From Bacteroidaceae bacterium (lineage in GTDB: Bacteria > Bacteroidota > Bacteroidia > Bacteroidales > Bacteroidaceae), in the NCBI GenBank assembly GCA_045657945.1, contig JAZOUB010000041.1, positions 43,987 to 107,986 of the forward strand: 64,000 nt of DNA. The letters are read 5' to 3'. A program made the position numbers and the translations under genes. Below, in pieces: positions 2,059-61,453 of this stretch; the first letter of the stretch is position 1, and each line of letters opens with the position of its first letter. Under the pieces are notes generated by a model. The model searched no databases. It saw only the letters and a program-made list of their open reading frames with translations, and was not told the origin of the DNA.

Positions 2059-2067
2059 AGTTCTTTT

Positions 2068-19668: not shown

Positions 19669-22600
19669 TTATTTTACGAATATCTTTTTGCCATTGACAA
19701 TGTAGAAGCCAGGTTCGGTAATCTCGTTGAGCTTGCGGCCCTGGAGGTCATAGATTGTATCCTCAACCTCTCTCTCAATCTCCTCAATCTCGGTAGTTCC
19801 GTCATCGAATACAAAGCGGAAACCTGTACCCTGCTGCAACAGCTGTGCAAAGTTACCCTCAACAGGCAAGTATGCCTTGTGACTGTTGTTGGTGAATGTC
19901 GCTGTTGCTCCACCTGTTATGTATGAGTTGTTAGAGAGTGGATACATACCAACTCCATTACTTTTTTTAGTAAGGATGTAAGCATCCTTGTTTACATAAC
20001 TCTTTGCAACTGTTCCCTCAAGAATGTTTCCAACCGCTTCGGCTCTTGCCGCGTCTGTATTCTCAGTGATGATGAAATCGTATATCTTCGCCTCGTCACT
20101 CCTTAGGATTACACCTGTGTTTGCAGGGATAATACCGTTCTGCAACATTGTCATTGTAACCCATGAATCGGCTGTAATATTCTTCTCTTTGAGAACATAT
20201 GCTCTAACACCCTCGGGGATTTCAACTGCAACAGGCGCGTAGAATGTAGCGTGCAATGCCGAACCAATGGTTACAGGAAGTGACTCAACCTCCTCAAGAA
20301 CAAAGTTGTGGTTTGTTGCATGGTTATCGGGGTTGCCACTACAGTGGTCAACATAGCGTGTTGTGCCATCTACTGCGTGCAAGTAGCTTGGTGCAGCAAT
20401 GGTTGTTGTCTCTCCGCTGGTTGTTATTGTAACAGTGCCGCTTGTTCCAACAGCCTGCAGACCGCGTGTTCCGCCATCCTCTTTTATGTATGTACCCTTG
20501 TCGTATGAGAGCAACTTGTTGTCGGCATAGTAGAAGATAGATGCGGCGCCAGTCTCTTTTGTCATAAGCAATGCGTTAGCCTTATTGGTTACACCGCTTG
20601 CCTCGCTCTGGATGTAGTACCTGTTGGCAGGAGTTTCTGGAGTTTCACCGCTGCCTTCACCTTCGTCACCTTCACTATTGCCTGTTTCTATCATGGTCAA
20701 AGCTGTTACATATATATATCGGCCTATAATTCCAGATAGTTTGAATGAAGTTTCCCCTTCTATAAATGTGATTGTTTGTACACTCGTACCTCCATTCAGT
20801 GAAACATTTTCTGAATTGTAAGAAACGGTCATGTCATATGTTCTGTAGCCGTTCTTATAACTCATCTCTGTTAGGGTGTAACCTTCGGGAACAGTAATTG
20901 TATATTCAACAGGTGTTGTAACTCCGTCAATGAGGTGCAATTGGAAACCATTATTGTATTTCATTGATGCAATTTCAGTTCCATTAGCATCTCTTGCAAT
21001 AATATTAACTCCGTTATCACTAGTCCATTGCGAATAAGTGGTCTTATCTCCCGTTTGTCCACCGAATGCTCCAGTTGTCAAATCTATTGTCACCACATCT
21101 CCAGCCGCTCTTGCAGCGCCTGCGCTGGCTGCAGCTGCGAAACCGTCATATCCAATGCGGTAGTAAACACCGGCTGTGGCATTCTCAACAGGGAGGAAGT
21201 TTGCAACATACTCGGCATCCTCCATATTCTCCACATTTGCAATGCCGGGGATAGTGTATGGGTTCTCGCTGCTGACAACATCTGTACCCTTTGTCCAGTT
21301 TACAAAGTAATAACCGGTATTTGCGGTTGCTGTGATGGTTGCCTCCATATTATGGCCCACCTTAATGGTTGTTCCTGATGAAGTGTCTGATTCTGCAGTT
21401 ACTGTACCATAGCTGTCATCATTTGCACGAACGGTGAGGTTGTATGATGCAGGCTCAAAGGTGGCTGTGTAAGTTACATCCTTCTCAATGGTGATGACAA
21501 GATTTTGCTCATTGCCCACAATGTTGTCATTCTCATCTTTCCAAATTGTTTCGTAGCCATAGCTTAACCAAGTGTTTATCATAACCTCGGTTCCTTCTTT
21601 CACAACGGCTCTGTTACTTGCATCATAGCCCAATGATGTTCCATCGGGGAGTGTGATTTTAGTGACATATCCAATTCTATTGCTTTTGGGTTCACCTATT
21701 ACAACACAACCACGGAAGAAGCGTGCCTGGTATGTTGCGGCCTCTGTTGCCTGAACAGTTATTGCAAGCTCTTTGCTCACAAGTACATCGTTCTTGTACC
21801 AACCGTCGAACAGGTAGGCCTTCTGGTCGTAGTCGGATGATGCAACAAGTTCAACATCGGCACCTACAACGAAATCGGCATCAGTTGCCCACGCCTGTCC
21901 AATGTTGTTGATGATAGCCTTTACATTACCATCTACAGCGTTAGTTACAGTTGTGCCGTCGGTCGATGCAACTGTGATGTGTATTGCAACTGTGCCTGTT
22001 GGAACCTCATTGAAACGTGCAGTGTAGTTGATGTGGCTTGTGACGGTGAATGTATAACTTGCCTCAGCGCTTATTAAATTCTCTCCATCGTACCAACCTG
22101 CAAAACTGTAGCCAGTACTTGGTGTGGCTGTGAGTGTCACCTCGCTGCCATGTTCAACATTTGTTGCGCTTGCGGTTGCGCTACCGCCCTCGCCGGCTGT
22201 TACATTGATGTTGTATATGTTGATTGCAAAGTTCACATTAATGTTTGTCACCCAATTTTTTGATCCACTTGTGCTTGTGGTGTATTCAGCATTTTCGCTA
22301 AGTACAGTACTGGTAGAATCGGACCAGTTTACAAAGTGGTAACCTACGGCAGGTGTAGCTACAAGAGGAAGTTGATATCCAATAGGAGCTTTTTTCTTTG
22401 TAACATTCTCCTCGCCATTGATGCTTGTTGTTCCGCCTTCAGTTGGTTTAATGTTCAATTTGATAGCCGGCCATCTCCAGGCTTCTTCCAATATGGCAGC
22501 GTATGCATTGATAGTGTTGTATGTCAGGCCACCCCATTTTTCGAAATCACCCAAGTTCTCAACTATTGGAACCAGCGCGTCTGTAATGATACATTTGCCT

Positions 22601-25600
22601 TCTCCTACACCTGCATAGTAATAGTACATTGCATATGTATCATTGAGCATGACTTCATAGTAGGGTGATTCAACAAACTCAAACCAAGCACCCTGGTGAC
22701 CATTGCTGTTGTAGTGTGTAGCGTAGTTGTAACCGGTTGCCGATGTGGAACAAAGATAACCCTTTTCTTCGCCCACGTTTGCTGTAAGAGAATACTGTGC
22801 ATCGGTATAATAATCATTTCCTGCAGGTTTCTTCTCGATTGTGAACACTGTTGCATCTATGGCATTCTCTACATATACCACATTCTGAGCATCACCATTG
22901 GCAACACTTGTTACCTGAATGTATTTACCTGTAAGCTCGTTCTTGAAGATGAACTCAAAGCTGTTGTTTACGTTGTAGATAGCCCAAGCAATCTTTGGAT
23001 TACCTCCCATGGTGTTGTATGTAGGGTGGTCGCCATAAGCGTAAGAGCCTGTAACCTTTGGTACATAAGTGTCATCAGCACTTGAAGCCGACAGATATAC
23101 CGGGTAATCGTTGTTTTTTGTATTTGATGGCCAGTAGATATTATGCCATATCTCATTCTGAGCATTACTTACTTTGAATGGTAATATGACATTGTTGGTA
23201 TATGTATAAGAATTGCCATTAATCTGGAGCTTACCATTGTCAATAACTTCATCTTCACTTTTTTCACCTAATGCTATATAAGGATACAGCTCAACCAACT
23301 TGGCAGCAACAGTTTCTTTTGTTATACCGTTGGTGAAGCCGTCCAACCGAATGCGATATTCATTGGTTTGGCCTGCATTGGTACCGATAATCTCAGTCAA
23401 GACAACATCTACAACTATCTGCTCAAAGTTCGCCTCAAGGCTCAATGCCTCGCTCACAGTTACGGTGTATGGGTTTTGGTCACTTACAACATTGCTGTTT
23501 CTTGCTTCGGCTGTTCTTGCAGCTGCGCTTGCCTGTGCAGCAGGTCTTGTCCAGTTGACAAAACGGTAACCGGGGTTGGCTGTTGCAAGAATTGAAACCG
23601 TTGCGTTAGCAGGTACAAACTTGTTGTTAACAGTCTCGGCAGCACTGCCATTTACTGTAATTGACACACTACCGGGAACAGTTTCTGTTTCCTCATCATT
23701 TACAGTCAACACAACCTCGCGGTAGCTCTCCTTAACGTTCTGCACAGTCTCGGTGTGTGTGTTAAGGGTGTTGAGAGGCGTATTCGCAATATTTTCTATA
23801 ATAGCCTTGATTGCATTGATGTCGTTATTGTCGGTGTAATTGCCATCACCGGCACCAAACTTGGCAACATTTTCTGTCAAAGCATCAATAATAGCCTGAT
23901 AGTCGGGAGCCTCAACGAACTCAATCCAAGCACCTTGGTGACCATATCCGTTATTACTATTGTTGAAATAGTGTGTTGCGTAATTGTAGCCTGTTGCCGA
24001 TGTTGAGCAGAGATAACCTGTTGTCTCGCCAACCTTTGCAGCAAGTGCATACTGTGCTGGAGTATAATAATCATTTCCTGCAGGCTTGTTGAAAATTGTG
24101 AACGCTGTTGCCTCCTCAATATTTTCAACATAAACTACATTTTGAGCACCATCATCGGCAACATTTGTTACCTGAATATACTTTTGGGTAACCTTGTTCT
24201 TGAAGATGAACTCAAAACCGTTGTTTACATTGTAGATAGCCCAACTGATTTTTTCATTACCATCCAATGTATTATATGTCGGGTGGTTACCATAAGCGTA
24301 TGAGTCTGTTACCTTTGGTACATATGTGTCATCTTTACTTGAAGCCGACAGATATACCGGGTAATCGTTCTCTCTAGTGTTTGCCGGCCAGTATATGTTG
24401 TGCCATACAGTTGTGTTGGCATTACTTACCTTGAATGGCAATGTCACAGTGTTGGTGTATGTGTTGTCTGCAATAGCACCGTTCTCGCCCAATGTAATGA
24501 ATGGGTATGTTGTTGTCAGGTAAGTTGCTACAGCAGCTGCATCGTTGGGAACGTAGTCGAGTGTCTCTCGGTAGATGTTGCCCTCTGTATCGGTAAGCTC
24601 AATGTTGAACTCAACAGGTACATATTCAACATCTGCATTCGGGTTAAGGAAATTGTTGTTTGTAATCTCCTCAATTGTCAAAGGAACATATACCATTGAG
24701 TAACCATAGGTGTTGTCGTCGTTATGACAAGGAGCCTCCTCAAAGAAGAATGCTATCTCGCCATTCTCCTGCAGTGCCATTGCGCTGTATGCGCTCTGCA
24801 CTGTGCTCACCTGCAAGCCCTTTGTCCAACCGCCTGCAATTGAAGACGGAGTCTGTGTCTCGTTGCCAATCTCCTTGTACCAGATGGTTACATCCTTGCG
24901 GTCCCAAGTGCTTGAACCACCCTGTGGCTGTGACTGCAACAGAATTTTTGTAGGCTTGCCGTTGGTTTGCTTTGCGTCAAGGCAGATTATTTCACCGTTT
25001 GTGCCGTTTTTGCCTTCATTGCTGCAACCGCTGACAGCAGTGCCCCAAGTGCCTTCGCCGGCAGCCTTGTCGTTGCCGTATGTGAAGACATTGAACACAC
25101 GGCTACCACCGCTTGCGTGGCGTGAACTGAGCAGAACCTGTCCGTTTGGCAGAATCTCAACCTTTGGCTCGTCAGCTTCGGCTATATGTGTTTTGCTGCC
25201 ACCGAGGATATTCCAGGTTGCACCCCAGTCATCCGAGAACAGAACATAGTTGTTTGTGCTGCGTGCGCTGTTCTTTAAAAGGATTGCACCATAGACACGT
25301 GCCTTGCCTGTGCCGTTGAAGTCGGGGTCAACAGCCAATTTACCGCTGCCGAAGAATGTTGCGTATGCCTCGTCGAAGAGACCAAAGATATTGCTTGTAA
25401 CCTCCTCTTTTGTCCAAGATTGACCATTGTTGTTGCTGTAGATACGGTAGGTCTTATTTTTGTTTGTTGCATTGGCATTGGGGTAGAATACATTGCCGGC
25501 AACAGCCATAACAAGGATGTCCTGTCCGTTGGCTACAATAGCTGCATCGCCGTAACCGAATGTCGATGTACCCTCGGCTATAGTCTGCTTTGCAGTCCAA

Positions 25601-28600
25601 GTTGCACCGTTGTCGTCGCTTGTACGCATAACAAGGTCAACTCTGTTTGTTCCTGTGCCGTGGTTGTCGCGGCCAATATCATCGTGGCTGTGACGGTAGT
25701 CGCTCACTGCAACAAGGCGGTTTGTGCCGGTCTTTGCAATGGCAGGGATGCGGTATGAGAATTCATCATCATCGTAGAAGAGTGTCACATCATTGGTTGC
25801 TGTGAACTTTGCAACAAGCGGAGTAGTCTCGTTGATTGCTGCAACATTGTCAGCTGTGAGTGTCGGGTTTGTTCCAAGTGATGTCGCGCCAATGTAGAAA
25901 CCGTTGAACTCAAAGCCACGATACTTGCGTGTGAATGCAAGTGTTGTACCCTCGGCGAGTGGCATTGTAAGCTCGCTTGCTGTTTGGTGAGCTGGAGTGA
26001 GCTTCATTGCTGTTCCGCCAATGGTTATTGTACCCAAGTGAGTATTTGGATTATCGTTTCTCCAGTTCTCAACCTCGGCCTGGAACATTGCCGGCACAAA
26101 CTCCTCTTCAATGTATGTGATTTCAAGAGCTGTGATGAAGATACCATTTCCTGCAGTTCCACCTACACCAATGTTAATGGTATTGGTTTCAAGTCCTGTT
26201 GCAGAAATAGTTTTTTCTGTAGTACCACTTATTGCAATAGTACCGGTATTGTTGTTTGTAGCGGTATATGTAACATCACCAGAGAATGAATCACCTTCTC
26301 CCCTGATAGTCATACTATATCCTGCAATTTTATATGGTTCAGGGATAGAAATTGTAAAATTAGTTGCTTTAGCCAAATATGGAGTTTTATTACCATTAAC
26401 CTTGGTAGTCCAACCAAGATTGTTGTTAGTAATTCCATCCACTTTGATTGTTACAGTTGGAGTTGTGTTTACAACTGCTTTGTAACCCCAACCGCTGTTT
26501 ATTGTATTACCGGCATAGTTTGTATATGTAACATCTGCAAATGTAAGATTCAATGTCTTCTCGTTAGAAGGGATAACCTCCTCGAGAACCCAGGTAGAAG
26601 CTGCGTTTGAAGCTGCATCACAATATACATATCCGTTCTCTGCCTTGAAGTAATCGTCGCGCTCAACACCGTTATTCATGTTCGTGTTGTCCCACTTGAT
26701 GAGGTACTCAAGTTCGTTACCTGTTGTCTCAAAGGTGAGTACTGTGGCATCGTTTGCGCTGGTGGTGTTTGCATTGGCATTCCAAGCGTGGCACTTGATG
26801 TAGTTGCCGCTGTTTGCTTTCAGTTTATAGCCATCGCCGCTCTGCTCAAAGAGGAATATCTGTGTGTCGCTGCTTTCGTTCTTGGCAACAACAGTTACAC
26901 CACTTGTTGAACCTGTATTGTTGCTTGTATTTGCAATGTTCATATAGTTGGTGGTGTTCTTTACCTTCAAACGGAAGAACTTGCCTGCAAGAGATGTTGT
27001 TGGTTCTGTCGGCGTATTTGACTCAAAATTTGCAACATAGTTTGAAGCCTGTGCCACGCTTACATTGCAAGTTGCTTCGGTGCTAACCACATTTCCGCCC
27101 AATGTCCAGTTTACAAAGTTGTAACCGGTGTTGGCGGTAGCATAAAGTGTTATCTGAGTTCCGTTTTCAACATCGCCCTGTGTCTTTTGGCTACCAGTGC
27201 CAACTGCGAACTTTGCTGTACCACCCGCTGCAGGGTTTGCAGTCGTTGTAACGGCGTAGGTTGTTGGGGTTGGGTCAGGCTCCGGCTCCGGCTCTGGGTC
27301 GGGAGTTGGGGTAGAGGCTCCGCCTTCTGACTGGATGGTTACTGTAACTCCATCTTCCAAAATTGCCAAGCCGGCACGACCGGCATAAGTTGAACCCAAT
27401 ACAAACGAAGTGCTTTGTGAATTGATGTCTGATGCAGAAAACACAACGCCTGCAGCAGCATTATTTACATTTGTTGTATTTCCTCCAATTGTAACATCAA
27501 TTGTGTAAGAACTACTGGGGCTTTTACCCTTAAAACTGTAACTTTTTATTATATAACCTGCAGGTGCAGTCAATGTATAAGTTATATCCGAAACAAGTGT
27601 CTCAGAGTTTCCTACAGGCGCTTTTGCGAAGAATGTATTGACGGTTGTTGAAAGGGCATAAGCCGGCTCAGAGCCTTTCGAACAGTTCAATACAATACCG
27701 TCGCTTGTTGTCCAAGTGCTGCAATAAGATCCATTAGCTCCACTTATCTCTACACTCGAAATGTTAAATGTGCAATCTTTCTCAACCAGCACATTTGCCT
27801 CATCGTCAAAGTTTGCAACATAGTCATTGTCGGATGCACCTACTTTTACCTGTAGTGTGTTCTTTGTGCCGACTATGACACCGTTCTTTGTCCAATTTGC
27901 AAGTGCATAACCGTCGGCAGGGTGTGCGGTGAGGGTTGCGGTGAAGTTCTCATTAATTTCTGCGCTTGCAGTTGTTCCGGCAGTTCCACCATTGATTGAA
28001 ACAGTACCCATATTTGAAGGTGTAGCTGTTGCAGTAACGGTGAATTTTTCTGTTTTTGGCGCAAGGTTAAAGAGTGCGTAATGTTCTGCACCATCTATCC
28101 AAGAATAATTGTCGCCTTGAGAAGGAGTGATAGCGTCAAGTTTGAACCAACCATTACCCGAGCCGTTCCATCCGAAGTTGAAATGAAAGTAATTATTGGC
28201 TGTGTAACCATCAAGGACAAACATATGGCGTGTATCACCTGTACCACTATTATCTGACGCGTATGGTATTGGGCAACCGTTGTCAATGCTCTCCTTGATT
28301 TTTTCAATCCACTGCTCCATAGTAAAGTTTGCCTGGTATGAGGCATTGATGAGCTGGTAATTGAAATAGTCATTCAGAACCTTGCTGTCCGATCCTTCGT
28401 TTACAGTTGTTGCACCGGTGCCTATACTTGAAGGGAAACAGGCGTGCAGTATGTGTGAGAAGAACTTTGAAACCTCGTCAATCTGCTCCTGTGTCCAGTC
28501 ACTGTTGTATGTAAGAGGCATCTTGCTGAAATCATATACTCTGTCGGTTATCTCTACATATGTAGGTGCCTGACAGTTGTACAGGGTCTTGGCTGTTCCT

Positions 28601-33956: not shown

Positions 33957-35717
33957 TTACTTTACAAGTGTTTTTTTGCCATTTACAATGTAGATACCGG
34001 GAGCAGTGATAGCCTCTACACGGCGGCCTGTGAGGTCGTAAACAGTTTTCACATTTCCGTTTTCCGTTTTCACCTCTTCAACGCCTGTTGTACCCTCGCC
34101 AAAGCGGAAGCTGAAGTTTGCTGCACCCTGTGCTGCTGCAGGAACTGCGCTTACAGGCAAGTATGCCTTGTTGGCATTGTTAAGGAAAACTTTTACTGAA
34201 CCAGATGCTTGACTTAGTGCTATAGTGGTCATCTGTGCCTTGTAGAGGCCGGTTTCGCCTTCAACAACACCAAGTATGTAAGCCTGACCAATGATGTTGG
34301 TGTTGATTACTGTACCCTTGAAAAGGTTGCCGGTTACGGCTGCTGCATTTGTCTCTGATACACTGAAAGTGTACTCACCCTCTGCGCCCTCAAGGATAAC
34401 GGCTGTGTTTGCAGGGATTACATTCTCAATCTGTGTCAATGTTACTTTCTCACCATTGAAACTTCCTTCGGTAATGTAGTATGCCTTTACATTCTCGGGG
34501 ATTTCAACCTCAGCAGGTGCATAGAATGTAGCATAGCCGACACCGCTGATATTAGCCTTGAATGAAGCAACTTCTGCAACCTCATATACATAGTGGATAG
34601 TCCAACCGCCGGTTCCGGTGTTATAAACAGGAGTGCCGTTTGAACCATTCTGGACGTTAATCCAGTTGCTGCCTTTTACAAAGCGTACAAGGTTGGCGTC
34701 GTTGCTGCCTGTGATGTAAAGGTTTGAGTCGCCGTCGCCGTTGAATGTACCGTCAACGCCGGGAGCTGTTGCTGTAAATACTGCAGCATTGTCAATTGTT
34801 CCAAAATCCTTTGGTGATGATGTCTGCATGTATGTGCCGTCCAATTTCTTCAAATAGTATGAACCGGCTTGACCTGCGTTCACAGGCTCCCAAACAAAAA
34901 TTGCATCATTTGTGAACTCCTCCTCGCTGTAAGGTACTGCGCCAGTGTTGCCCACAAACCAACGGTTATTTGTGTAAGAGAGGTTTTTGATTGCAATGTA
35001 TGTGGGCTCGGTTTTTGCCATCAAATCACTTGCTGTAACCTGTGTGAGGTATGAAACTTCTGCGGGTTCTTCAGGGAGCTCGGGAGTTGCAACCTCAGTG
35101 TCAATAGTCACCTTGAACAATCCATAGAAGCAACCATAGGCTGTGTAGTTGTTGACAATGTTGATTTTGAGTGTTACGGTTCCGTCAGCAGCCTTGATAG
35201 GGGTACTTGGAACAAAATTTACTGTTACACTTTCACCTCCATTAGAGTTCACCTTGATTGCGACCTCGTTATGTTGAGCTACTGTGGCGTCATCCTGCTT
35301 TAGAATGAAATCAATATGCTGTGCGTTTGCATTGTCGCCCTGAAATGCACCACCGCCATTCAAAGCAACGCTCTTGAGTGTTATGGCCGTGAATTCGTAG
35401 TTGTCGGGAACACCTGCAATGGTAAGTGTTATTACGCCCGCCGCATCACCGGTCATGTCCTTTGTGTTCTTGTCTGGGCAAAGGATGCTTGAATTTGGAA
35501 ATGTTGCGCTATTTGCTCCAAATGCTTTCCAGTTGTAGTTGCAAGCGATAGTTGAGGTGATGCCTGTTGCATCAACATCGCCAGTGCCTGTCACTGTAAC
35601 ATTTGCGTCAGTGCCTGCCGCACTGTTGTTTCTTGAGAATGTCAAGTCAATTGCATTCTGCGCCATTGTTGCTCCACAGAAGAGCGCAAGCGCCATAGAT
35701 AGTAAAATTTTCTTCAT
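33957..35717 (-). CDS. T9SS cargo protein, adhesin/lectin-like (586 aa)
   Basis: Signal peptide MKKILLSMALALFCGATMAQ. CTD is VYDLTGRRVEAITAPGIYIVNGKKTLVK. The roughly 200 aa before the CTD are homologous to the same region of the giant protein. Confidence 0.8.
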   Translation of the reverse strand: MKKILLSMALALFCGATMAQNAIDLTFSRNNSAAGTDANVTVTGTGDVDATGITSTIACNYNWKAFGANSATFPNSSILCPDKNTKDMTGDAAGVITLTIAGVPDNYEFTAITLKSVALNGGGAFQGDNANAQHIDFILKQDDATVAQHNEVAIKVNSNGGESVTVNFVPSTPIKAADGTVTLKINIVNNYTAYGCFYGLFKVTIDTEVATPELPEEPAEVSYLTQVTASDLMAKTEPTYIAIKNLSYTNNRWFVGNTGAVPYSEEEFTNDAIFVWEPVNAGQAGSYYLKKLDGTYMQTSSPKDFGTIDNAAVFTATAPGVDGTFNGDGDSNLYITGSNDANLVRFVKGSNWINVQNGSNGTPVYNTGTGGWTIHYVYEVAEVASFKANISGVGYATFYAPAEVEIPENVKAYYITEGSFNGEKVTLTQIENVIPANTAVILEGAEGEYTFSVSETNAAAVTGNLFKGTVINTNIIGQAYILGVVEGETGLYKAQMTTIALSQASGSVKVFLNNANKAYLPVSAVPAAAQGAANFSFRFGEGTTGVEEVKTENGNVKTVYDLTGRRVEAITAPGIYIVNGKKTLVK

Positions 35718-35756
35718 ATAATTAAATTTTGCGTTAATGAATACTTTTTAATAACG

Positions 35757-35790
35757 CAAATGTAACTATAAAGAAAGAATTCACCCCCCC
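35757..35790 (-). promoter_or_regulatory. Putative promoter: -7 box TACATTTG, 19-nt spacer, G7 tract
   Basis: The plus strand reads CAAATGTA(35757-35764)-19 nt-C7(35784-35790). The ATG is at 35717. It shares the GCAAATGTAACT core with 15125-15136. Confidence 0.5.
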
Positions 35791-35811
35791 ATTTAGTTAA
35801 ATAATGTTAAA

Positions 35812-35912
35812 AAAGGGGGCTAAGGGGACTAAGGGAGCTAAAGAAAACATTAGTGTTCCTTAGTTCTCCTTATGTTCTTTAGTCTCCTTTTTAATCCCAC
35901 CTTAGTGCTCCT
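35812..35912. repeat. Composite TAAGG array (3-4 direct, about 7 inverted units)
   Basis: TAAGG at 35821 and 35830, TAAAG at 35839. CCTTA-type units at 35858, 35868, 35877, 35885, 35900 and 35910. The centre, AACATTAGTGTTCCTTAG, is homologous to 33055-33084. Confidence 0.65.
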
Positions 35913-41135: not shown

Positions 41136-41151
41136 GTGTGTTTGTTTAATG

Positions 41152-41188
41152 CCCAAAAGGGCGTAAAGGGCTAAAAGGCCCAAAAGGG
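41152..41188. repeat. Phased AAAGGG array (4 units)
   Basis: CCCAAAAGGG CGTAAAGGG CTAAAAGG CCCAAAAGGG lies just upstream (in gene orientation) of the FKBP start. Confidence 0.55.
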
Positions 41189-41529: not shown

Positions 41530-41560
41530 TAAGGCCCATAAGGGCATAAAGGGCTAAAAG
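41530..41560. repeat. Phased (A/T)AAGGG array (4 units)
   Basis: ATAAGG CCCATAAGGG CATAAAGGG CTAAAAGG. Confidence 0.55.
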
Positions 41561-41561
41561 G

Positions 41562-41595: not shown

Positions 41596-44500
41596 TTACT
41601 TGATAAACATCTTCTTGCCGTCGATGATGTAGATTCCCTTTGTTGGATTCTCTACCTTGCGGCCCTGCAAATCGTAGATAGCTTTTACCTTTCCGTTTTC
41701 ACCTTTCACCTCATCAAGCACCTCCTCAATGCCTGTCTCGCCATTGGTGTAGGTGTAGGTGATGTCAAGGTTCTTGCTCACATACGCAAGCTCGTCATAT
41801 ACGGCGTTGCTCTCCTTGAGTGTGTAACCCTCAAAGATTGGGGTGAGCATGGTGAACTGTTCACCGCCCTTTACATAACGTGTGCCGCTTGCCAGTTCGT
41901 TGCCCTCTTCATCGATACACTTGTATGCTACAGCAAAGTAGGGGTGTGGGTTGTAGGTGTAGATGATGAATGGGTGGCCGTCGTCCCAGCCTGTGAAGGT
42001 GTTGTTGGCGTTGCCGTTCCAGTAGTAGTTGTTGCTTGTGCCCTTTACGCTCCATGTGGCGCCGTCGCTGTTGAGGGTAAACTTGAAACGCTCGGGGGTG
42101 CTGCCACCGGTTACCAATGAACCGCGCAACAGCTGTGGAATATATACGCCATAGTTGTTTACAACGGTGAAGATGTTGTTCGCGCCCTCAAGGTTCCAGA
42201 TGAATCCCGGGTTTGCATCTGTCACTCCGTTGGTTGTTGTGATGCCGTCGCCAACGTTTGTGACGCTCAGGAATCCGCTGCGTGCAGTTTCGTTCTTTGC
42301 GTTATAAATAAGGTATGATGCACCATCCTGGAGCTCGGTAACAACCTCGCCGATTGATGCCGCACCCATGATACCCTCGGTTGTGAATACTGCTTCAATC
42401 ACGGTGTCCTCTGTCGGGGTGAAGGTTACTTCGCCGTCCCATACAAGGTTTACGAAATCAAAGAACTCTACCTGTGGTTCTGCAATGGTGTATGCCTCGC
42501 CAATGGTGCATGGAGTGTCAATCTCCTTGATGATGTTGCCGTCGGCTGTGATGCAACGGTAGGTCACATTGTAGGCTGTGCGCTTGTAGGTTACCTTTAT
42601 GTTCTTGTTCTCAGCGACATTGTCGAACACGGGAGCATCGGCTGTGCCGGTTGCCTCGTATGCCACAATGCCGTGGTTCTCAATTGCTGGAGCAACGGCT
42701 GTGTATGGCTTGCCGTCGGCTGCTGCCTGGTAGGCGGTCTGCATCAGGTTTCCATCCTCGTTGTAGCACTCGAATGTTACAAGGAATGCCTTCTCATAGA
42801 TCCAACCTGTTCCCTGTGGGTAGATACCGCCTTTGTTCAGGGTGTTTGGGTTGGTGGTTGCATGCTCCGAAACAGGATGCAATGCGTCGTTGCCGCTCTT
42901 GATGCTGAAGTCGCCGCTTCTTGTGTTGTATGCATTGGTGAGCACTGCACCGCTTGCGCCCAGTTTCACAGGTGCATTGGCGTTGCTGATGTAACGGCCT
43001 GTCGCTACGTTGCGTAGCTTGAATGTCTGGCCGGCATCGGTTACTGTGGCATCTGTGATTTCCCATACATCTGCGCCATACTGTAACTGTGCTGCGGTTA
43101 CATTTTCGTTGTTGTTGTCATACATTGTCCAACCCTTGAAACGCTCGGTGTTGTTCACAATGCGGTATGTTGTGCCCTCTACAGGGTATTCAAAGTCAAT
43201 GCTTGGTTCGTCGTCCACCAACGGGCGGAACTCCCATATGCCGCCGTTGCCGTCGGCCGGGTCACTCCACAGGTTTATTGAGTGGTTCTGTCCGGGGCCT
43301 GCATAGTTGAGACACATGTTGCCGTTCGATACCTTTTGGCTGCGTATGCTGTAGGTGTAGTTATTGCCTTTCTGTGCATAGGCCTTGTCACCGAGGATAA
43401 AATCATAGTGGCGGTTGTTCTCGTCATAGTCCCAACGGCCGGTGTTGTTCTCGGCTGTAGGTGTTCCCTTTACCGAACCGTTTGGTTTTGCCTTGTTCAC
43501 CAAAGCCCAACGCTGTGGGTTGGCTGGGTCCTGCATGAAAGCCCATAACTGCCAGTCGTAGCCTTCGTTGTTCTCATCTTCGATTACCTCGCTGTTCCAC
43601 AGGCGTCCGGCTGGTGCAGTGCCTGTCTTGTCGGTGATGTTCATACCTTCGCGCAGAAGCTGGATGCAACGTCCGGCACGTGTGTCGGTAGCTGTGGTAA
43701 CAATGCGGTACCATGTCTTCTCCTCATCGGTAGAGGCCTTTGGCATCACCTTGTCGTCGCCATTCTTGTTGTCGAGAATATAGTGGCGTCCATAGTCGTA
43801 GTTATTGTAGTTGAGCAAGAGAGTATCCTTTGTGATGCGCTCCTGGAAGTCGCTGAAGTTCTTCTTTGATGCGGGTGTCCAGCCTGTCTCGGCAATAGCG
43901 GTGAGGCGTGGCAGGGCAAGGTATTCGAGCAGGTCGTTGTCCTGTACGTGCTCGGTCCAGAATGTACCCTGTACACCAACGTAGTACTTGTGCAGGTTTG
44001 ATGGCACGCTTGATGGTATCGGCGCATAGTCATATACCACTTTCACGTTGTCTGTTCCATAACCAGCTACTGGTGGCTCGTCGGCATCGGTGCTCTGGCG
44101 GCGGTTGATGTAGTAGGGGACTTGTGTGGTGATGATTGACTTCATGCCATTCTGTGCCGCTTTCAAAGCACATGGCTGTGCGTTGCCAATCTCCCAGCAC
44201 ATCATTGTGCCGCCTGTACCCAAGATTTTCTCCTCGTCGGTACCGCCGGCGGTGAGGCTCTCGTTCCACATGATTACGGTGCGCTTCTTGTCGCCCTCCT
44301 TTGAGGTTACGTAGTCCGATACCTGGCGCACGAAGTGCGACTGCAACTGACGGTAGTTGGTGAATCCCATCTTCTGCATCATTGCCTGGCACTCGGCATT
44401 GCCCTGCCAAGCGTTTGTAGGTGTCTCGTCACCACCGATGTGAATCTGGCTGTAGGGGAATACCTCAATTACCTCGTCGAGCACATCCTTTGCAAACTGC

Positions 44501-45450
44501 AATACCAATGGGCTTGCAACGTTGAGCACATCGCTGAAGATACCGCCGCTTATCTGTACGCTGTGGCCGGCATTGGGGTTACAGCTGAGTTCGGGGTATG
44601 CTGCGTTCACGGCGCATGAGTGGCCGGGGAACTCAATCTCGGGTACCACCTCGATGTGACGCTCTGCTGCGTATGCTACAATCTCGCGGCACTGCTCCTG
44701 TGTGTAGAAGTATGGACCGTAAGGCTCATTGGTATAGTAACCGCCATATACGCGGTCGGTGCTCCATGAGTTGCTGCGTGTTGCACCGACAGTTGTCAGG
44801 CGTGGGTATTTCTTTACCTCGAAACGCCAGCCCTGGTCGTCGGTGAGGTGCCAGTGGAAGCGGTTGAGCTTGTAATATGACATCACATCAATAATGCGCT
44901 TGATCTCATCCAAATCAAAGAAGTGACGGCTCACATCGAGCATGAAACCGCGGTACTCAAAGCGCGGAGCATCGACAATGCTCACGATGGGGAGCGGGTA
45001 TTCGGTCACGGTCTCGTCCTTCACACCGGCCATGACATTGGCTGGGAGCATCTTCTTGATACTCTGGAATGCATAGTAGAAACCGTTTGAACAGGTAGCA
45101 CTGATTGCAATGCCGTCGGTTGTTATGTCAAGGGTGTAACCCTCGCAACCCAAGTTCTCGCTACCATTGTAGAGAGACATGGTTATGAGCGCGTCGGCAG
45201 CCTCGGCCTTTACATCGACAGTGTAGCCTGTAACGCCTGTAAAGTGATTTGCAAACTTTGTAGCCTCGTTGGAGAGACTGTCGGGCAACTCACCTGTTGC
45301 AATTGTGAAATTCTGTGGCAATACGAGCGTGCCGTTGCCAACAGTCATTTTCATTGGAACCGGTGTAAGGTTTACTCTGCTGTCGGCAAACATCGTCGCC
45401 GGGATAGCCAGGAGAACCAACAGTAAGAAACGTGTAAACAGGTTTTTCAT
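41596..45450 (-). CDS. GH20 beta-N-acetylhexosaminidase with C-terminal lectin-like modules and T9SS CTD (1284 aa)
   Basis: GH20 motifs RGFMLDVSRHFF, HWHLTDDQGWR, IHIGGDE. CTD is IYDLQGRKVENPTKGIYIIDGKKMFIK. Confidence 0.9.
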   Translation of the reverse strand: MKNLFTRFLLLVLLAIPATMFADSRVNLTPVPMKMTVGNGTLVLPQNFTIATGELPDSLSNEATKFANHFTGVTGYTVDVKAEAADALITMSLYNGSENLGCEGYTLDITTDGIAISATCSNGFYYAFQSIKKMLPANVMAGVKDETVTEYPLPIVSIVDAPRFEYRGFMLDVSRHFFDLDEIKRIIDVMSYYKLNRFHWHLTDDQGWRFEVKKYPRLTTVGATRSNSWSTDRVYGGYYTNEPYGPYFYTQEQCREIVAYAAERHIEVVPEIEFPGHSCAVNAAYPELSCNPNAGHSVQISGGIFSDVLNVASPLVLQFAKDVLDEVIEVFPYSQIHIGGDETPTNAWQGNAECQAMMQKMGFTNYRQLQSHFVRQVSDYVTSKEGDKKRTVIMWNESLTAGGTDEEKILGTGGTMMCWEIGNAQPCALKAAQNGMKSIITTQVPYYINRRQSTDADEPPVAGYGTDNVKVVYDYAPIPSSVPSNLHKYYVGVQGTFWTEHVQDNDLLEYLALPRLTAIAETGWTPASKKNFSDFQERITKDTLLLNYNNYDYGRHYILDNKNGDDKVMPKASTDEEKTWYRIVTTATDTRAGRCIQLLREGMNITDKTGTAPAGRLWNSEVIEDENNEGYDWQLWAFMQDPANPQRWALVNKAKPNGSVKGTPTAENNTGRWDYDENNRHYDFILGDKAYAQKGNNYTYSIRSQKVSNGNMCLNYAGPGQNHSINLWSDPADGNGGIWEFRPLVDDEPSIDFEYPVEGTTYRIVNNTERFKGWTMYDNNNENVTAAQLQYGADVWEITDATVTDAGQTFKLRNVATGRYISNANAPVKLGASGAVLTNAYNTRSGDFSIKSGNDALHPVSEHATTNPNTLNKGGIYPQGTGWIYEKAFLVTFECYNEDGNLMQTAYQAAADGKPYTAVAPAIENHGIVAYEATGTADAPVFDNVAENKNIKVTYKRTAYNVTYRCITADGNIIKEIDTPCTIGEAYTIAEPQVEFFDFVNLVWDGEVTFTPTEDTVIEAVFTTEGIMGAASIGEVVTELQDGASYLIYNAKNETARSGFLSVTNVGDGITTTNGVTDANPGFIWNLEGANNIFTVVNNYGVYIPQLLRGSLVTGGSTPERFKFTLNSDGATWSVKGTSNNYYWNGNANNTFTGWDDGHPFIIYTYNPHPYFAVAYKCIDEEGNELASGTRYVKGGEQFTMLTPIFEGYTLKESNAVYDELAYVSKNLDITYTYTNGETGIEEVLDEVKGENGKVKAIYDLQGRKVENPTKGIYIIDGKKMFIK

Positions 45451-45480: not shown

Positions 45481-45526
45481 TTAAAAGGCCTAAAAGGGCA
45501 AAAAGGGCGAAAAGGGCGAAAAGGCA
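45481..45526. repeat. Phased AAAAGGG array, 5 units at exactly 9-bp spacing
   Basis: TTAAAAGG CCTAAAAGGG CAAAAAGGG CGAAAAGGG CGAAAAGG. The GG starts fall at 45487, 45496, 45505, 45514 and 45523. Confidence 0.7.
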
Positions 45527-54577: not shown

Positions 54578-57295
54578 TTATCTTATAAAGACCTTCTTGC
54601 CATCAATGATGTAAATACCTTTGCTTGGAATGTCAACTTTTCTTCCTGTCAAATCGTAAATGGTTCCAATTTCTCCGTTTTCAATCTCAATATCCTCAAT
54701 CGCGGTGTTGTTGAGTTCCACAGCGCGGATACCCCAAGTTGCGGCATTCGTAAGCTGATCTGAAGCGACGATAGTATAGCTGTTGACATCCATCGCCAAA
54801 TACTTTCCACAGCCCTGTATGGTAAAGTATATAGTGCCGTTGTCAAGATAGTTTGCCTTGAACACCAGCGCCTCCTCCTTGCTTTCTCCGCTGCATGATG
54901 TTCCGTTGTTGGCAATATCATTTATGTACAAACCATTCTTGTTCTTGATGTAGTAGTGGTGTGCAACACCTGTGCTCTCGAACATCCAACGCTTGTTTGG
55001 TGATGTATTCGCCATAGTGTTCGCAATGAGGCCATACTTGTCATAACACATGCTATATGACCTCAATTCACCGTTGGCAAGTGTATAAACATCAAGTTCC
55101 TTGAGGTATGCACGTGCCGATGGGTCATTCTTTAAATCCACCATCTCCTGCTCGAGCAATGCTATCCACTCCTTGTAGCTATGCTTGCTTGTATCCTTGC
55201 TGTCGGCAGCAGCCTTGGCCTCGTTGTACAGTGCTGTGATTTCAGTCAATGCACTCTTGTAGAAGTGACCGACCTCCTTGCCGGTTGTGGTAGTCTTGCT
55301 TGTGAGGCTCTTCACTGACGATAAAGTTGCATTTAAAGCCTCAAGCTGCATCTCCTCGTCATCGCTGTCTGCGACATTGGGCACTTCATAATCGGTACCG
55401 TCGGCCTGTGCAGCCACCACTCTCAATGGAGCATTTGCCTGTGCAACAGGCACTGTCAACTTGAACCCGTTGTTGAAGTCGAGCAACTCGCCGGTAGCTG
55501 CATTGTACAATTTGAAGCCGAGAGCACCCTTTACATCGGCAGCCTGCTTGATAGTAATGTTGTTCTGTATTCTTGCATAGTAATATCCCTGAGCCTTAAC
55601 ACTCTCGTCGATGTAATCGCTCCACTGTCCCGTGCTACCCATCTTGCCAATTGCAAACTCATCATTGAAGTTCAATCTATTACCGGCAACGCCATCGGTT
55701 CTTGGAGATGGTTTGATGCGGTCCTCAATGAATAGAAGGTGACCGCCCTTCTTTGCAAAACGCTGCATACGCGCACGGCTTGCCTCGGCCTCCTCTTTGG
55801 TGAGGTTCACGATGAAATTCTCATAATCACCCACACCCGCATCGGTCATAGGCTCAAACATACCCCAAGCCTCAAAGAACTCGCTGAGGTCCATCTGCGC
55901 AACATCGCAGCACACCTCGGCAAATCTCAGCTGGTCATCCTTGGCCTGTGTCAGCGAAGTCCAGTTGCGGTCTTTGGGTCCCTTGTCAAGTGGATTCTTG
56001 CGCAGAGCCTCGAACACTCTTGGATAGAATGTGGTGTCCTTGCCTGCTGCATGGAAATAGAGATAGAGCTGGAAGAACATTCTCGACTTTGCGATGATGT
56101 CACTGCCGCGCAACGGGAACGGAGTCTTGTTGCTGAAATCCTCGCGGCACACGCTCACACCGTTTCCACGTGTAGTTGTCTTTCCGGTGCGGAAAATCTG
56201 TGCATTGGCAAAGAGGTTGTTGGTGGCCTCGGTACATGATACAATGTTTATTGCATTCTGGTTTACATGGCCAATCTCGTGTGCCGGTCCCCACATCTGT
56301 CCCGGATCGGCGTACACCTTTTCCCAAGGCAGGATGTCGGGCAGTGTGTAATACTCATAGTAAGTATATGTCTCTGTCGCATACATGAACATACCTTCAT
56401 AGCCGTCCTTTGCCATAATCAGGTCGTTCCAACGGTCATAGTATTTGTCTGCGCCCATCAGCTCATGCTGCCACTTTACGCACTGGTCCCACCATTTGAT
56501 GGCATCGGTGATTGTGTTGGGGCATGCATTCAGCACATTCTTCAACTCCATGTGGAACATCACCCTCTCGCCAAGTACCTGAACCGAGTAGTGCTTCATC
56601 ATGTTCTGTGTCATGTCGCGCCAATCCTCATCGGTGTGGCGTGAAAGGTCGAAGTAACCGTTCACATATCCGCCCTCGATGTGGATGGGTACATTGGGGT
56701 AGTCGGCAAGCTTCTTGCTTGTAGCAGAGCTGTCTGTGTCAACATAATACTGTATGAACAACATACGGTCATCACCCTCTGTGTCGGGAATCTTCACTAC
56801 GTTCAATCCGCTTTGGAGCACATTTGTCATCAATGGACGGGGCATGTTGCCGGCCACAGGGGCAAGTTCCATCCAGATTGAGTCGGGCAACTCACTGCCC
56901 ACGAAAATGAGCACATACTCATTGTCTGCACTGATACCTGTGGGGTTCTGCAGTTCACTGTATTGTCTCACATTCATCAGGTACTTCCAGTTGTAGGAGT
57001 TACTGTAGGGCTTGGCCTCGAACACGCGGAACTCCTTCTCGCGCTTTTCCCAAGTATTGTTCTTCACCTTCAAGGCAATGTTTATAAGTTCTTCGGGCAT
57101 CGCACTCATTGTGGTACGCAACTGCTCGTCGGTCATTGCAGAGTAGGGAACTGCAAGTTCTGTACAGATGTCATCGACAAAGTAGTTCTTGAACTCGGCA
57201 TAATAACGCTGCGCATTGTTTGTTGTCAGCTGTGCATTTGCAGTCACAGCCACAGCAAGCAATAGTAATGTGAGAAGTAGATTTCTTAGTCTCAT
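54578..57295 (-). CDS. M60-like (enhancin-type) zinc metallopeptidase with lectin-like C-terminal module and T9SS CTD (905 aa)
   Basis: Zinc motif GPAHEIGHVNQ. Long collinear similarity to the next gene. CTD is IYDLTGRKVDIPSKGIYIIDGKKVFIR. Start is at MRLRNLLLTLLLLAVAVTANAQ. Confidence 0.85.
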   Translation of the reverse strand: MRLRNLLLTLLLLAVAVTANAQLTTNNAQRYYAEFKNYFVDDICTELAVPYSAMTDEQLRTTMSAMPEELINIALKVKNNTWEKREKEFRVFEAKPYSNSYNWKYLMNVRQYSELQNPTGISADNEYVLIFVGSELPDSIWMELAPVAGNMPRPLMTNVLQSGLNVVKIPDTEGDDRMLFIQYYVDTDSSATSKKLADYPNVPIHIEGGYVNGYFDLSRHTDEDWRDMTQNMMKHYSVQVLGERVMFHMELKNVLNACPNTITDAIKWWDQCVKWQHELMGADKYYDRWNDLIMAKDGYEGMFMYATETYTYYEYYTLPDILPWEKVYADPGQMWGPAHEIGHVNQNAINIVSCTEATNNLFANAQIFRTGKTTTRGNGVSVCREDFSNKTPFPLRGSDIIAKSRMFFQLYLYFHAAGKDTTFYPRVFEALRKNPLDKGPKDRNWTSLTQAKDDQLRFAEVCCDVAQMDLSEFFEAWGMFEPMTDAGVGDYENFIVNLTKEEAEASRARMQRFAKKGGHLLFIEDRIKPSPRTDGVAGNRLNFNDEFAIGKMGSTGQWSDYIDESVKAQGYYYARIQNNITIKQAADVKGALGFKLYNAATGELLDFNNGFKLTVPVAQANAPLRVVAAQADGTDYEVPNVADSDDEEMQLEALNATLSSVKSLTSKTTTTGKEVGHFYKSALTEITALYNEAKAAADSKDTSKHSYKEWIALLEQEMVDLKNDPSARAYLKELDVYTLANGELRSYSMCYDKYGLIANTMANTSPNKRWMFESTGVAHHYYIKNKNGLYINDIANNGTSCSGESKEEALVFKANYLDNGTIYFTIQGCGKYLAMDVNSYTIVASDQLTNAATWGIRAVELNNTAIEDIEIENGEIGTIYDLTGRKVDIPSKGIYIIDGKKVFIR

Positions 57296-57425
57296 ATTGT
57301 TAGGTTTTGTTTTTGCAGAATTTACCAAAATAGTTATAATATTGTGCCAAAAGTAGTGCTTTTTAATCAAATAAACAATAATAGGTGTTGTGATATATTA
57401 TATAAGGTAACAAATGTATAAAAAA

Positions 57426-60500: not shown

Positions 60501-61453
60501 TTCAAACCCTCCTTCAAACGTGTGTCGTTACCCCAGAACTTGGTGCTCGCCATTTCTGCAAGGTCAATTGTTGTACCCTCGGGAATCTCCTCTACAAACA
60601 CATAGATGAAGCTCTTTGAGTCGCTTGTGCTGATACCGGTAGGGTTGTTTATACGGTTATAAGGACGTGTAAACAATCTGTCGGCCCAAACCTCGGGGTT
60701 GCTGTATGGCTTGTAGTCATAAATGCGGAACTCCTTCTCGCGTGTAACGCTGTCCCAAGCATTGTTCTTTATCTTGAGAACAGCCTGCTGCAGGTCGGCA
60801 GGAACACCCTCGAGCTCGGCGATGATCTCGGCATCGCTCTTTGCTGCCCACTCGGCCTTGAGCACAGTGCAGGCATTGTCTTCAAAAAGGCCACCCACCT
60901 TTGCTGCAATAGCATTGGCGTTGTTGAGCACCTTGGCATAATCCTGATATGCGGCAGCAGCTGCAGCAATCTCCTCGGCACTGATGTTTACCTCTTCAAA
61001 TGTCCACTCGGTACCCGAAATCTCATTGGTACCGTAACTCCATGGTACAATGTTTGAACTGCCGTCGCAGTGCATACCCCAGTTCTTTGTCGGGGTGAGG
61101 TCGATGTTGTAGCAGCCCTTGAGCATTGGGTTCTCGGTAACAGTGAACTGTGTCACGGTGTTGCCGGTCTTCCACTGGACATTACGGCCGGTCTCGTACT
61201 GCACATAACGCTGTGTATAGACATTCTTAATTGTAAACTTGCCGTCATCGGCAGCGTTGAACATCCACATCTCGTGGTAGTCGGTTGCTGTGCCTTTTGA
61301 CGCGCATGACAGTGTGTGCAGGATGGGGCTTTCCGACATCACTGTGCCATATTTTGCACTTACAATGCGGTAAACCTTTCCGTCCTCAACCTGTGCAAAA
61401 GCAAAGGTTGCAAGCATTACAAGGAATGCTGTGAGTAAAGATTTCAGTTTCAT
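57521..61453 (-). CDS. M60-like zinc metallopeptidase with N-terminal ricin-type-like module, C-terminal modules and T9SS CTD (1310 aa)
   Basis: Zinc motif GPNHEIGHTNQ. Paralog of 54578..57295. CTD is IYDLNGRRVVNPERGIFIQGGKKVLVK. Confidence 0.85.
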   Translation of the reverse strand: MKLKSLLTAFLVMLATFAFAQVEDGKVYRIVSAKYGTVMSESPILHTLSCASKGTATDYHEMWMFNAADDGKFTIKNVYTQRYVQYETGRNVQWKTGNTVTQFTVTENPMLKGCYNIDLTPTKNWGMHCDGSSNIVPWSYGTNEISGTEWTFEEVNISAEEIAAAAAAYQDYAKVLNNANAIAAKVGGLFEDNACTVLKAEWAAKSDAEIIAELEGVPADLQQAVLKIKNNAWDSVTREKEFRIYDYKPYSNPEVWADRLFTRPYNRINNPTGISTSDSKSFIYVFVEEIPEGTTIDLAEMASTKFWGNDTRLKEGLNIVPCANKDGSLYIRYVCETAIDGKKLADYPTVKVHIENGYVNGFWSKERGHTNEDWVYMRDNMFKNPTAVQAAGDLTVLNFRTYEFLKECPDNIEGVMRLWDFWNSRQNHYMALDKYYPWMNNKQLAMSDDNGFMDASAYRTHYNNNTLSTIVNYDLLIADAGSSWGPNHEIGHTNQYAFQIVGTSEVSNNALTNFAIFDQGTHVSRGNNMDNQILDFENKIPYVVRGEGMYGSKLFSMTRMYFQLFLYFHAAEKDTTFYPRLFEKLRYDQLPGWRVGSWDELDENGFYRNSVDASKDQLKFAEACCEIAQMDLSEFFEAWGFFIPMKNAFVGDYGHHWVYLLEEDAKASKARMQKYEKKGGHLMFLEDRVRKSPRKKSPFCDGTGYRANYADWDGETIGTVGNFGQWMDYIDETVKAQGYYYAVSKGKVVIKEAEGASGALGFKLYNAETGELLSYTNKYEMNVPVTASGAPLKVVAAQADGTDYEVPHASQGPESMQKEALDGSLKSASAIIATKAAANTIVGYYYPEAIADLEALYKEANAAYKANDTSKYSFAEWSIMLDDECSKVLNNEDARITIKEGAVFTMRRLINPYRGYYAVGEYPTATTTNKTGGNINWTIEYAGKVGEYFLKCTSTGYYLTNLTTAGAFLETKKQEDALKFTVGYTDDGGVNFILADGSEQTLGLSDGGSVGILPLNETGAKWRVDIVEDNSLAFYKAAVEELMTEANIKITEVLNLDSLQTMNIFNDGIIVKDNNLNTYALNLLDTYYEVSANMENATATQLQKYANTLRKQLTDIEGKYIVTAPMVTKGEQVIWYYIISNKSEKFAGIYNGTQASRKGRVEMSDEVTDDVLWSFVSTGKAGEYKLYNAGQKGFAYRQGTKNYIFTSAEEDFLPVTIEYDAKNDGLLMTAAEKTIYDGGTAVQLSASKSYWRVQIALIENNKEVADIITNIENVIPEANVNGAIYDLNGRRVVNPERGIFIQGGKKVLVK

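Follow-up and report, generated by a model that had tools for sequence, protein, structure and literature searches.

A composite promoter upstream of a secreted-protein gene

The stretch of DNA analysed here, hereafter the window, comprises 64,000 nucleotides of contig JAZOUB010000041.1 from a Bacteroidaceae bacterium and carries on its minus strand a gene for a 586-residue protein that is preceded by a run of seven guanines (G7). This run is a real part of a conserved composite promoter design that is widespread in Prevotella-like gut bacteria and, as judged by sequence comparison, the length-variable G run probably tunes or switches the expression of genes for surface and secreted proteins. 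An earlier annotation of the same DNA (the original prediction) had regarded the run as the second copy of a poly-G/−7 promoter design in front of a type IX secretion system (T9SS) adhesin-like gene and had suggested that G7 may represent one state of a switch. The layout that it gave, with a minus-strand orientation, a 19-nt spacer, 39 nt from the box to ATG(35717) and a 586-residue open reading frame (ORF), is exact to the base.

The promoter module consists, from 5′ to 3′, of a tandem direct repeat of TTAAC, a linker, the G7 tract, a spacer and a −7 box (Table 1), and the linker, tract and spacer together place the box 5 + 7 + 19 = 31 nt from the repeat. The G run is assigned to the position of the −33 element because the 19-nt gap equals the usual spacing between the −33 and −7 elements of Bacteroidetes promoters; all promoter coordinates used here (−33 for the tract and −44 to −58 for the repeat) were derived from this spacing, with the transcription start itself predicted. 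The repeat, which would lie at roughly −44 to −58, is a putative activator site or UP-like element, and its layout, TTAAC-N5-TTAAC with a 10-bp period ending 31 nt 5′ of the −7 box, is that of an OmpR/PhoB-type box. A CCCCC TTTT stretch is found directly 5′ of the first TTAAC on the minus strand. On the other side of the module, the 39-nt gap to the ATG comprises the C that follows the box and a further 38 nt, and the leader is short and lacks a Shine–Dalgarno sequence. The AACGCAAAATTTAAnTAT element ahead of the ATG is kept in closer relatives and a palindrome in the 5′ untranslated region, which overlaps the −7 box, is kept only in close relatives. An Rfam scan of the whole window matched a transfer-messenger RNA (tmRNA) gene and nothing else, so that the module region contains no known RNA element. 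A scan for σ70 promoters and terminators was set aside as inapplicable to Bacteroidetes.

The 586-residue protein begins with a Sec signal peptide, MKKILLSMALALFCGATMAQ-N, as judged by inspection, and 530 homologues were found. The protein has no Pfam or NCBIfam match, permissive thresholds included, and neither its whole sequence nor its last 85–120 residues match Por_Secre_tail or TIGR04183 at E ≤ 5–10; an exact-protein look-up returned no record for this protein or for the 1310-residue window protein described below. In the AlphaFold model, which has a mean predicted local distance difference test score (pLDDT) of 61, the N-terminal β-sandwich alone is confident, and a Foldseek comparison of the model with the PDB gave matches of the carbohydrate-binding module (CBM)/jelly-roll type with TM-scores of 0.55 or below, which are too weak for naming a function. 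The last 28 residues match the tail of six other secreted proteins encoded in the window. The seven tail-bearing proteins include a C10 peptidase, a 3060-residue giant protein, a MucBP-containing protein and an M60-like peptidase. Their shared motif of about 28 residues, [IV]YDLxGR[RK]V...GIYI[VI]xGKKxx[VI][KR], is missed by the Pfam Por_Secre_tail profile in all seven; it resembles the end of type A C-terminal sorting domains and may be a short lineage-specific sorting signal. It is reasonable to regard the 586-residue protein as secreted and possibly glycan-binding, and the label 'T9SS adhesin-like' found no support in Pfam or NCBIfam, the C-terminal tail at E ≤ 10 included.

Only three runs of seven or more Gs occur in the window, all of them on the minus strand (G10 at 15153–15162, G7 at 35784–35790 and G13 at 61578–61590), and all three lie exactly 19 nt 5′ of a TAnnTTTG box (expected number 0.00 in 100 shuffles). 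TAnnTTTG boxes number 52 over the 128,000 positions of the window, a density of ∼4 × 10−4 per position, which makes the chance of finding three of three at one fixed offset ∼7 × 10−11. The G7 run thus belongs, as had been proposed, to one poly-G/−7 design, its arrangement of tract, 19 nt and TAnnTTTG being shared by all three window runs. The copy at 15.1 kb, which we refer to as the sister module, precedes an 81-residue lipoprotein-like ORF. Its −7 box and 3′ flank are identical to those at 35.7 kb, as the original prediction had stated (the 12-mer AGTTACATTTGC is present at 15125–15136 and 35756–35767), and the similarity noted for the upstream segment likewise holds, TTAAC-N5-TTAAC being present in both; the repeat-to-box distance of the sister module is 34 nt. 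The third copy precedes the gene for a 1310-residue M60-like peptidase. The TTAAC repeat stands 5 nt 5′ of the tract in the 15.1- and 35.7-kb copies, and there is none at the 61.5-kb copy; at this G13 promoter (61480–61560, minus strand) CCTTAG units lie 3′ of the −7 box, within a leader of ∼100 nt, rather than 5′ of the promoter, and a TGGCAC element is found 17 nt 5′ of the tract. The other promoters of the window have a −7 box and neither a G tract nor a TTAAC repeat.

Distribution of the module and the genes it precedes

A protein-guided scan with one genome per species yielded 21 loci from relatives, all in metagenome-assembled genomes, mostly from ruminant hindgut and labelled Bacteroidaceae bacterium, Alloprevotella sp. 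or Prevotellaceae bacterium. In the window and these 21 loci together (197 kb), 12 of 14 TTAAC-N5-TTAAC repeats are followed by poly-G, 18–19 nt and TAnnTTTG, and every run of at least seven Gs lies within a poly-G/18–19 nt/TAnnTTTG unit. The design is not peculiar to the source genome and represents a widespread promoter class of the clade.

Metagenomes were scanned with the pattern TTAACN5TTAACN{4,5}GGGGGN{19,30}TANNTTTG, with an allowed repeat-to-box distance of 28–40, and at least 120 contigs match, their sources being human gut, rumen, gorilla, giraffe and woodrat. All numbers given from here on for metagenome copies and for DNA related to them are among the matches listed. Of 131 runs of at least seven Gs in 1.05 Mb of related DNA, 124 are part of a module, and 135 of 141 TTAAC-N5-TTAAC repeats belong to one and have a run of at least five Gs after them; these counts do not constitute independent support, since about 121 of the copies were chosen by the motif scan itself. 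The same 1.05 Mb contains no C-run equivalent of the module. The main layout has the consensus TTAACa..aTTTAAC-aATc-G(n)-TAAaTTG-N5-TTTT-N3-TAa.TTTGc. Over the class as a whole, the tract ranges from G5 to G11 (mode G8). Conservation is confined to ∼60 bp, and nothing is shared 5′ of the first TTAAC or 3′ of TTTGC.

An ORF of at least 70 residues starts within 350 nt of the box, mostly 25–50 nt past it, in 98 of 123 metagenome copies, and 70 of these 98 ORFs have signal-peptide-like N-termini by a crude rule. A Pfam scan of 92 downstream proteins identified BspA-type leucine-rich repeats (LRR; eight proteins), DUF3575 (eight), CarboxypepD_reg/Plug/TonB-dependent receptors of the SusC-like type (six), autotransporter-like β domains (six), Por_Secre_tail (two) and a NusG/UpxY-like first gene (one), the remaining matches being to a few small helix–turn–helix (HTH) proteins and one transposase. 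The genes driven by the module appear from these matches to be largely those of cell-surface or secreted proteins, which is the type found at contingency loci. In locus L057 the module (2658–2712) stands ahead of a NusG/UpxY-like gene (1964–2485, minus strand) of the type that leads Bacteroidales capsule loci.

Variation within the module and its surroundings

Twenty-five orthologous loci of the gene for the 586-residue protein, the window included, carry the module, which is kept in orthologues down to 46–52% protein identity (L012, L014 and L009); L003 and L008, two more orthologues whose upstream DNA could be read, have no module, and a tally of loci with readable upstream DNA gives 23 of 25 that keep it. 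The tract is G7 in 11 of the 25 loci (window included), G8 in six, G9 in seven and G5AG2 in one and is thus not fixed at G7 across relatives; fixation at G7 had been named in the original prediction as a finding that would speak against it. With spacer and box identical, L001, L004, L005, L142 and L143 have G7 versus G9 in L160, and the window has G7 versus G8 in L145 and L146, with 18 of the 19 spacer bases identical; such changes in length recur within every subgroup of related promoters among the 25 loci. The metagenome copies contain ten clusters of near-identical flanks (six or fewer mismatches in 75 nt of flank), five of which differ in G number (7/8, 7/7/8, 9/10, 9/11 and 5/5/10), and in two of these five the flanks have no mismatch at all. 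At the sister locus (window and loci L153–L159), eight near-identical strains have G10, G5TG4, G6TG4 or G5AG4, with a total of 10–11, and in L154 an insertion sequence (IS) element with an rve integrase has taken the place of the TTAAC repeats and reaches to within 4 nt of the tract. The interrupted tracts at this locus are either locked variants or errors at long G runs. By these comparisons, the G tract is a hot spot of mutation when set against its flanks.

The distance from the second TTAAC to the −7 box, D, is the sum of linker, tract and spacer. Over the 123 metagenome copies D is 31 in 49, 32 in 29, 30 in 23 and 33 in 12, and a second layout of the module, with no linker, G9 and a 22-nt spacer, likewise gives a D of 31. 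This second layout is incompletely covered by the search pattern at the low end and the statistics use the fully covered layout (n = 75), in which D is 31 in 31 copies, 30 in 17 and 32 in 16. Tract length is inversely related to the combined length of linker and spacer, with r = −0.53 overall and r = −0.31 (permutation P 0.007) in a strict subset (n = 69), and the mean tract declines from 8.7 at a linker plus spacer of 22 to 7.0 at one of 25. A case among the orthologues is L014, in which the spacer is 18 nt rather than the 19 nt of its relatives and the tract is G8 rather than their G7. The peak in D and the compensation between tract and linker plus spacer indicate that the position of TTAAC relative to the core promoter matters and that the tract contributes to it. 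The 35.7-kb copy is an ordinary, probably 'on', member of the class; its D of 31 is the class mode and most likely represents the favoured state.

A composite array, which forms an interrupted hairpin, lies between a SemiSWEET-like gene and the module. The original prediction had placed a TAAGG array immediately upstream; this array does adjoin the module on its 5′ side (∼35813–35912) and is no part of the design, none of the 117 other module copies having one, which rules it out as a part of the switch. TAAGG arrays also adjoin genes without poly-G. In total, composite arrays are seen in intergenic regions at 32984–33101, 35813–35912, 41151–41187, 41540–41561, 45483–45524 and 61480–61510. They are minisatellite-like, being made up of TAAGG-type purine-rich units with a 9–10-nt period, a CTAATG centre and then CCTTAG-type units, and form long hairpins with interruptions when folded (z about −2.2 to −2.4). 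Orthologous loci differ in unit number, from ∼3 to ∼15, and in relatives the arrays are found on both sides of an inserted 184-residue gene. These arrays may be terminators or insulators.

Directly 3′ of the gene for the 586-residue protein is a 54-residue ORF, MKKTYVSPLMVEVNVEAEAMLAASLKMDNEKTVDTSNGGQLSGGSRGTWGNLWN, which has no NCBIfam match; a gene of 54–55 residues is found at the same place in L145, L148, L150, L151, L152, L161 and L162. The ORF has a leader-like N-terminus and a Gly-rich C-terminus and in this recalls a peptide precursor. The 1.1-kb noncoding stretch between the gene for the 586-residue protein and a sulfatase gene includes several repeats that are rich in GC and form hairpins (GGTCGC..GTAGC..GGACA....CGCGGG and GTAGGGGC/GTAGGGCAGAC...), and a 30-mer, aatccacaaattgacctatcggcgagcttt, is present in duplicate. 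The hairpin repeats and the 30-mer look like elements of the repetitive extragenic palindromic (REP) type.

Table 1 Location of the module, related promoters and neighbouring features in the window
Feature	Position	Strand	Remarks
TTAAC-ATTAT-TTAAC tandem direct repeat	35796–35810	−	10-bp period; upstream anchor
Linker TAAAT	35791–35795	−	5 nt, between TTAAC repeat and G tract; class consensus aATc or TAAAT, 4–5 nt
G7 homopolymeric tract	35784–35790	−	At the −33 element position of a Bacteroidetes promoter
Spacer TGAATTCTTTCTTTATAGT	35765–35783	−	19 nt; class consensus TAAaTTG-N5-TTTT-N3
−7 box TACATTTG (35757–35764), then C	35756–35764	−	Fits TAnnTTTGY
Leader, box to start codon	35718–35755	−	Contains the predicted transcription start
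586-residue ORF driven by the module	33957–35717	−	Signal peptide, β-sandwich N-domain (weakly similar to CBM/jelly-roll folds), tail VYDLTGRRVEAITAPGIYIVNGKKTLVK
Sister module	15126–15182	−	TTAAC-N5-TTAAC, CAATC, G10, 19 nt, TACATTTG; 5′ of 81-residue lipoprotein-like ORF
Third poly-G promoter	61551–61590	−	G13, 19 nt, TATTTTTG; 5′ of 1310-residue M60-like peptidase gene
Seven tail-bearing ORFs	15203–16174, 19669–28851, 29168–31213, 33957–35717, 41596–45450, 54578–57370, 57521–61453	−	
Composite TAAGG/CTAATG/CCTTAG array	35813–35912	−	Interrupted hairpin, between SemiSWEET-like gene and module
54-residue ORF	33669–33833	−	
Hairpin region	33250–33650 and 33870–33945	−	Within the 1.1-kb noncoding stretch
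tmRNA gene	16767–17164	−	Rfam RF00023, 124 bits

Proposed mechanism and relation to known switches

We favour, with some confidence, the reading that the module is a slipped-strand promoter switch or rheostat. RNA polymerase with the primary sigma factor would use the −7 box and start just 3′ of TACATTTG, which would give a leader of ∼30 nt, and transcription would depend on a factor or a polymerase contact at the TTAAC repeat. The gain or loss of Gs by slippage would then shift both the distance and the helical phase between TTAAC and the core promoter and would thereby change promoter strength, so that each surface-protein gene would have its own heritable and reversible switch or rheostat. 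In its length (at least about seven), position and polymorphism the tract has what homopolymer promoter switches display at the level of sequence. G7 is the least mutable length of the range and would lie at its slow-switching end. The suggestion that G7 is one state of such a switch was upheld in part: the modal 31-nt geometry fits it, and the five of five pairs with identical proteins described next show no change in length.

Several observations weigh against a slippage switch. All five contig pairs that come from different samples and encode an identical protein of the 586-residue family agree in tract length, and G7 is the commonest state across species at this gene; the tract at this locus is therefore fairly stable. 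The pair agreement also means that the assembly consensus sequences, from which the tract lengths were taken, give no sign of fast switching here, and sequencing error may contribute to homopolymer runs of ten or more in short-read assemblies. The sister locus holds a distance of 34–35 nt in the eight near-identical strains, mostly with an interrupted tract, which is at odds with a single ON length. The compensation is only moderate, and D values of 30 and 32 are common. The tract is invariably G on the sense strand, and the next three bases are T, A and A in 100%, 91% and 83% of the copies, respectively; a mere spacer would not need a strand-specific G run and TAA, so that the tract may itself be a recognized element. 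Finally, the transcription start is a predicted one and the TTAAC-binding factor is putative.

Some of these points are shared by a reading in which the module is a specialized regulon promoter with no stochastic switch. TTAAC, the G tract and TAA would here form the site of one activator, or a particular polymerase contact, that co-regulates genes for envelope proteins, the differences in length would be slow drift or fixed set-points, and G7 would be no more than the working sequence of the 35.7-kb copy. Such a promoter would account for the strict strand specificity and the conserved T, A and A after the tract, for the five of five identical-protein pairs that agree in length and for the conservation of G7, over deep divergence, in 11 of the 25 orthologous loci; interrupted tracts (G5AG2, G5TG4, G5AG4 and GGGAGGG) persist in several strains, and the TTAAC direct repeat with its 10-bp period resembles the boxes of OmpR/PhoB-type response regulators. 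A site of fixed sequence, however, would not be expected to vary over G5–G11 from copy to copy or over G7–G9 between orthologues. Half of the near-identical clusters differ in G number alone, and tract length offsets the length of linker plus spacer. Moreover, runs of G8–G11 are slippage-prone whatever their function, which, together with the geometry constraint, implies an effect on expression. We regard a regulon promoter without any switching as the main rival, though an unlikely one. The two readings need not exclude each other, given that an activator site and a homopolymer cooperate in Treponema pallidum tpr and in Bordetella fim, on the analogy of which they would be compatible.

The occurrence of nearly identical 60 bp ahead of unrelated genes, including a DDE transposase in L127, and the IS element that abuts the tract in L154 could also suggest a mobile or duplicated promoter cassette or the remnant of a mobile element, with conservation by common descent and spread and the G run as a passenger. 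We consider this very improbable, since conservation ends at the module edges with no terminal repeats, spacer positions 8–12 vary freely and functional positions are fixed, and the module has the same placement in orthologues at 46% protein identity. An artefact or chance, in which poly-G from two-colour sequencing chemistry or assembly error stands beside a fortuitous TAnnTTTG, might explain in part the interrupted and uninterrupted 10-nt sister tracts as sequencing error and is otherwise scarcely credible in view of an offset that is the same in all of more than 140 independent contigs, the work of many projects and assemblers, and of zero matches expected in shuffled sequence. Scarcely more credible is an invertible promoter (inverton) of the Bacteroides type with an incidental G run: a 13-nt imperfect inverted repeat (35596–35608 and 35754–35766) does overlap the −7 box, but by our own estimate chance would supply ∼0.2 repeats of this quality in the 800-nt region. 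One of its arms is in coding sequence, at codons that the orthologue consensus does not share; inverted repeats are absent from the flanks of the promoter and from other occurrences of the design, and all 25 orthologous loci are in one orientation.

If the slippage reading is extended to the whole class, the module would represent a clade-wide and so far undescribed contingency-promoter system of Prevotella-like Bacteroidales, a proposal that we advance tentatively and hold to be possible rather than probable. In such a system the 60-bp module would switch dozens of genes for surface and secreted proteins individually ON and OFF, or grade them, possibly through one common TTAAC-binding activator, and would do by slippage what the Bacteroides invertons do by inversion; the genes would include those for BspA-like LRR proteins, SusC-like proteins, DUF3575 proteins and T9SS-type cargo as well as UpxY-led capsule loci. 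In gut Bacteroidales, DNA inversion is almost the sole known form of phase variation. A 2025 review on phase variation describes inversions and leaves slippage unmentioned (PMC12632263). Full-text searches, in a collection that lacks many subscription-journal papers, brought up no poly-G or homopolymer promoter switch for Prevotella or Bacteroidales, which falls short of proof that none has been described. If the module switches, it would explain the surface diversification of Prevotella/Segatella-type bacteria, which are dominant in ruminants and in non-industrialized human guts and are genetically hard to manipulate; phase-variable genes would be predictable in any genome or metagenome by TTAAC-N5-TTAAC, G(n), 19 nt and TAnnTTTG, and their ON/OFF states would be readable from metagenomic reads. 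The 31-nt geometry and the strand-specific G-TAA point to an as yet undescribed polymerase or activator contact in the unusual Bacteroidetes promoter.

The primary-sigma promoter of Bacteroidetes has a −33 element, TTTG, that is followed after 19–21 nt by a −7 element, TAnnTTTGY (PMC12632263). The module resembles it in the −7 box, TACATTTGC, at 39 nt before the ATG, in the 3′ end of the G run at 19 nt from the box and in a short leader that lacks a Shine–Dalgarno sequence, and differs from it in a −33 element (19–22 nt 5′ of the box) that is GGGG throughout the class, with the final G alone matching TTTG, and in the extra TTAAC repeat and TAA. Bacteroides invertons are found at capsule, SusC/SusD and surface-protein loci and act by inversion between flanking inverted repeats (PMC12632263). 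They occur in the same order of bacteria as the module, in front of the same gene classes (UpxY-led capsule, SusC-like and surface) and with the same −7 box, whereas the module has a homopolymer and no flanking inverted repeats.

Switches in which a tract alters spacing, the logic proposed for the module, are known from other bacteria. In Neisseria meningitidis, the length of the TAAA repeat of nadA alters the spacing of promoter elements or of distal elements with graded expression of a surface protein (PMC2791445), and tract length in porA (poly-G) and opc (poly-C) likewise alters spacing with graded expression (PMC7864442). The porA tract lies between −35 and −10, whereas the 3′ end of the module tract is a constant 19 nt from the −7 box; as in opc and nadA, the distance that changes in the module is that to an upstream element. 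In the tpr promoters of Treponema pallidum, poly-G tracts of eight or fewer are permissive, the tract acts with a CRP-type activator that binds close by and lengths of 7–11 occur within isolates (PMC7864442). The tpr genes (tprE/G/J and tprL) and tp0126 are like the module in that 7–11 Gs stand in or near the promoters of several outer-membrane protein genes per genome (PMC7864442). T. pallidum, however, is a spirochaete with σ70 −35/−10 promoters, whereas the module is a Bacteroidetes −33/−7 promoter with a TTAAC tandem ∼31 nt from the box.

The fim2 and fim3 promoters of Bordetella pertussis carry a poly-C tract of ∼13–15 Cs that spans the −35 region, between the BvgA site and the −10 element; these poly-C promoters were reportedly described by Willems et al. 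in 1990 and by Chen et al. in 2010. As in the module, a homopolymer sets the distance between activator and core promoter and each surface-protein gene has a tract of its own. The fim system has a known activator and paralogous genes, whereas the module has tracts of G7–G11, a putative factor and mutually unrelated genes. What is new in comparison with the known switches is thus the combination of a −33/−7 promoter, a tract in place of TTTG, a TTAAC anchor and its use ahead of unrelated genes throughout a clade.

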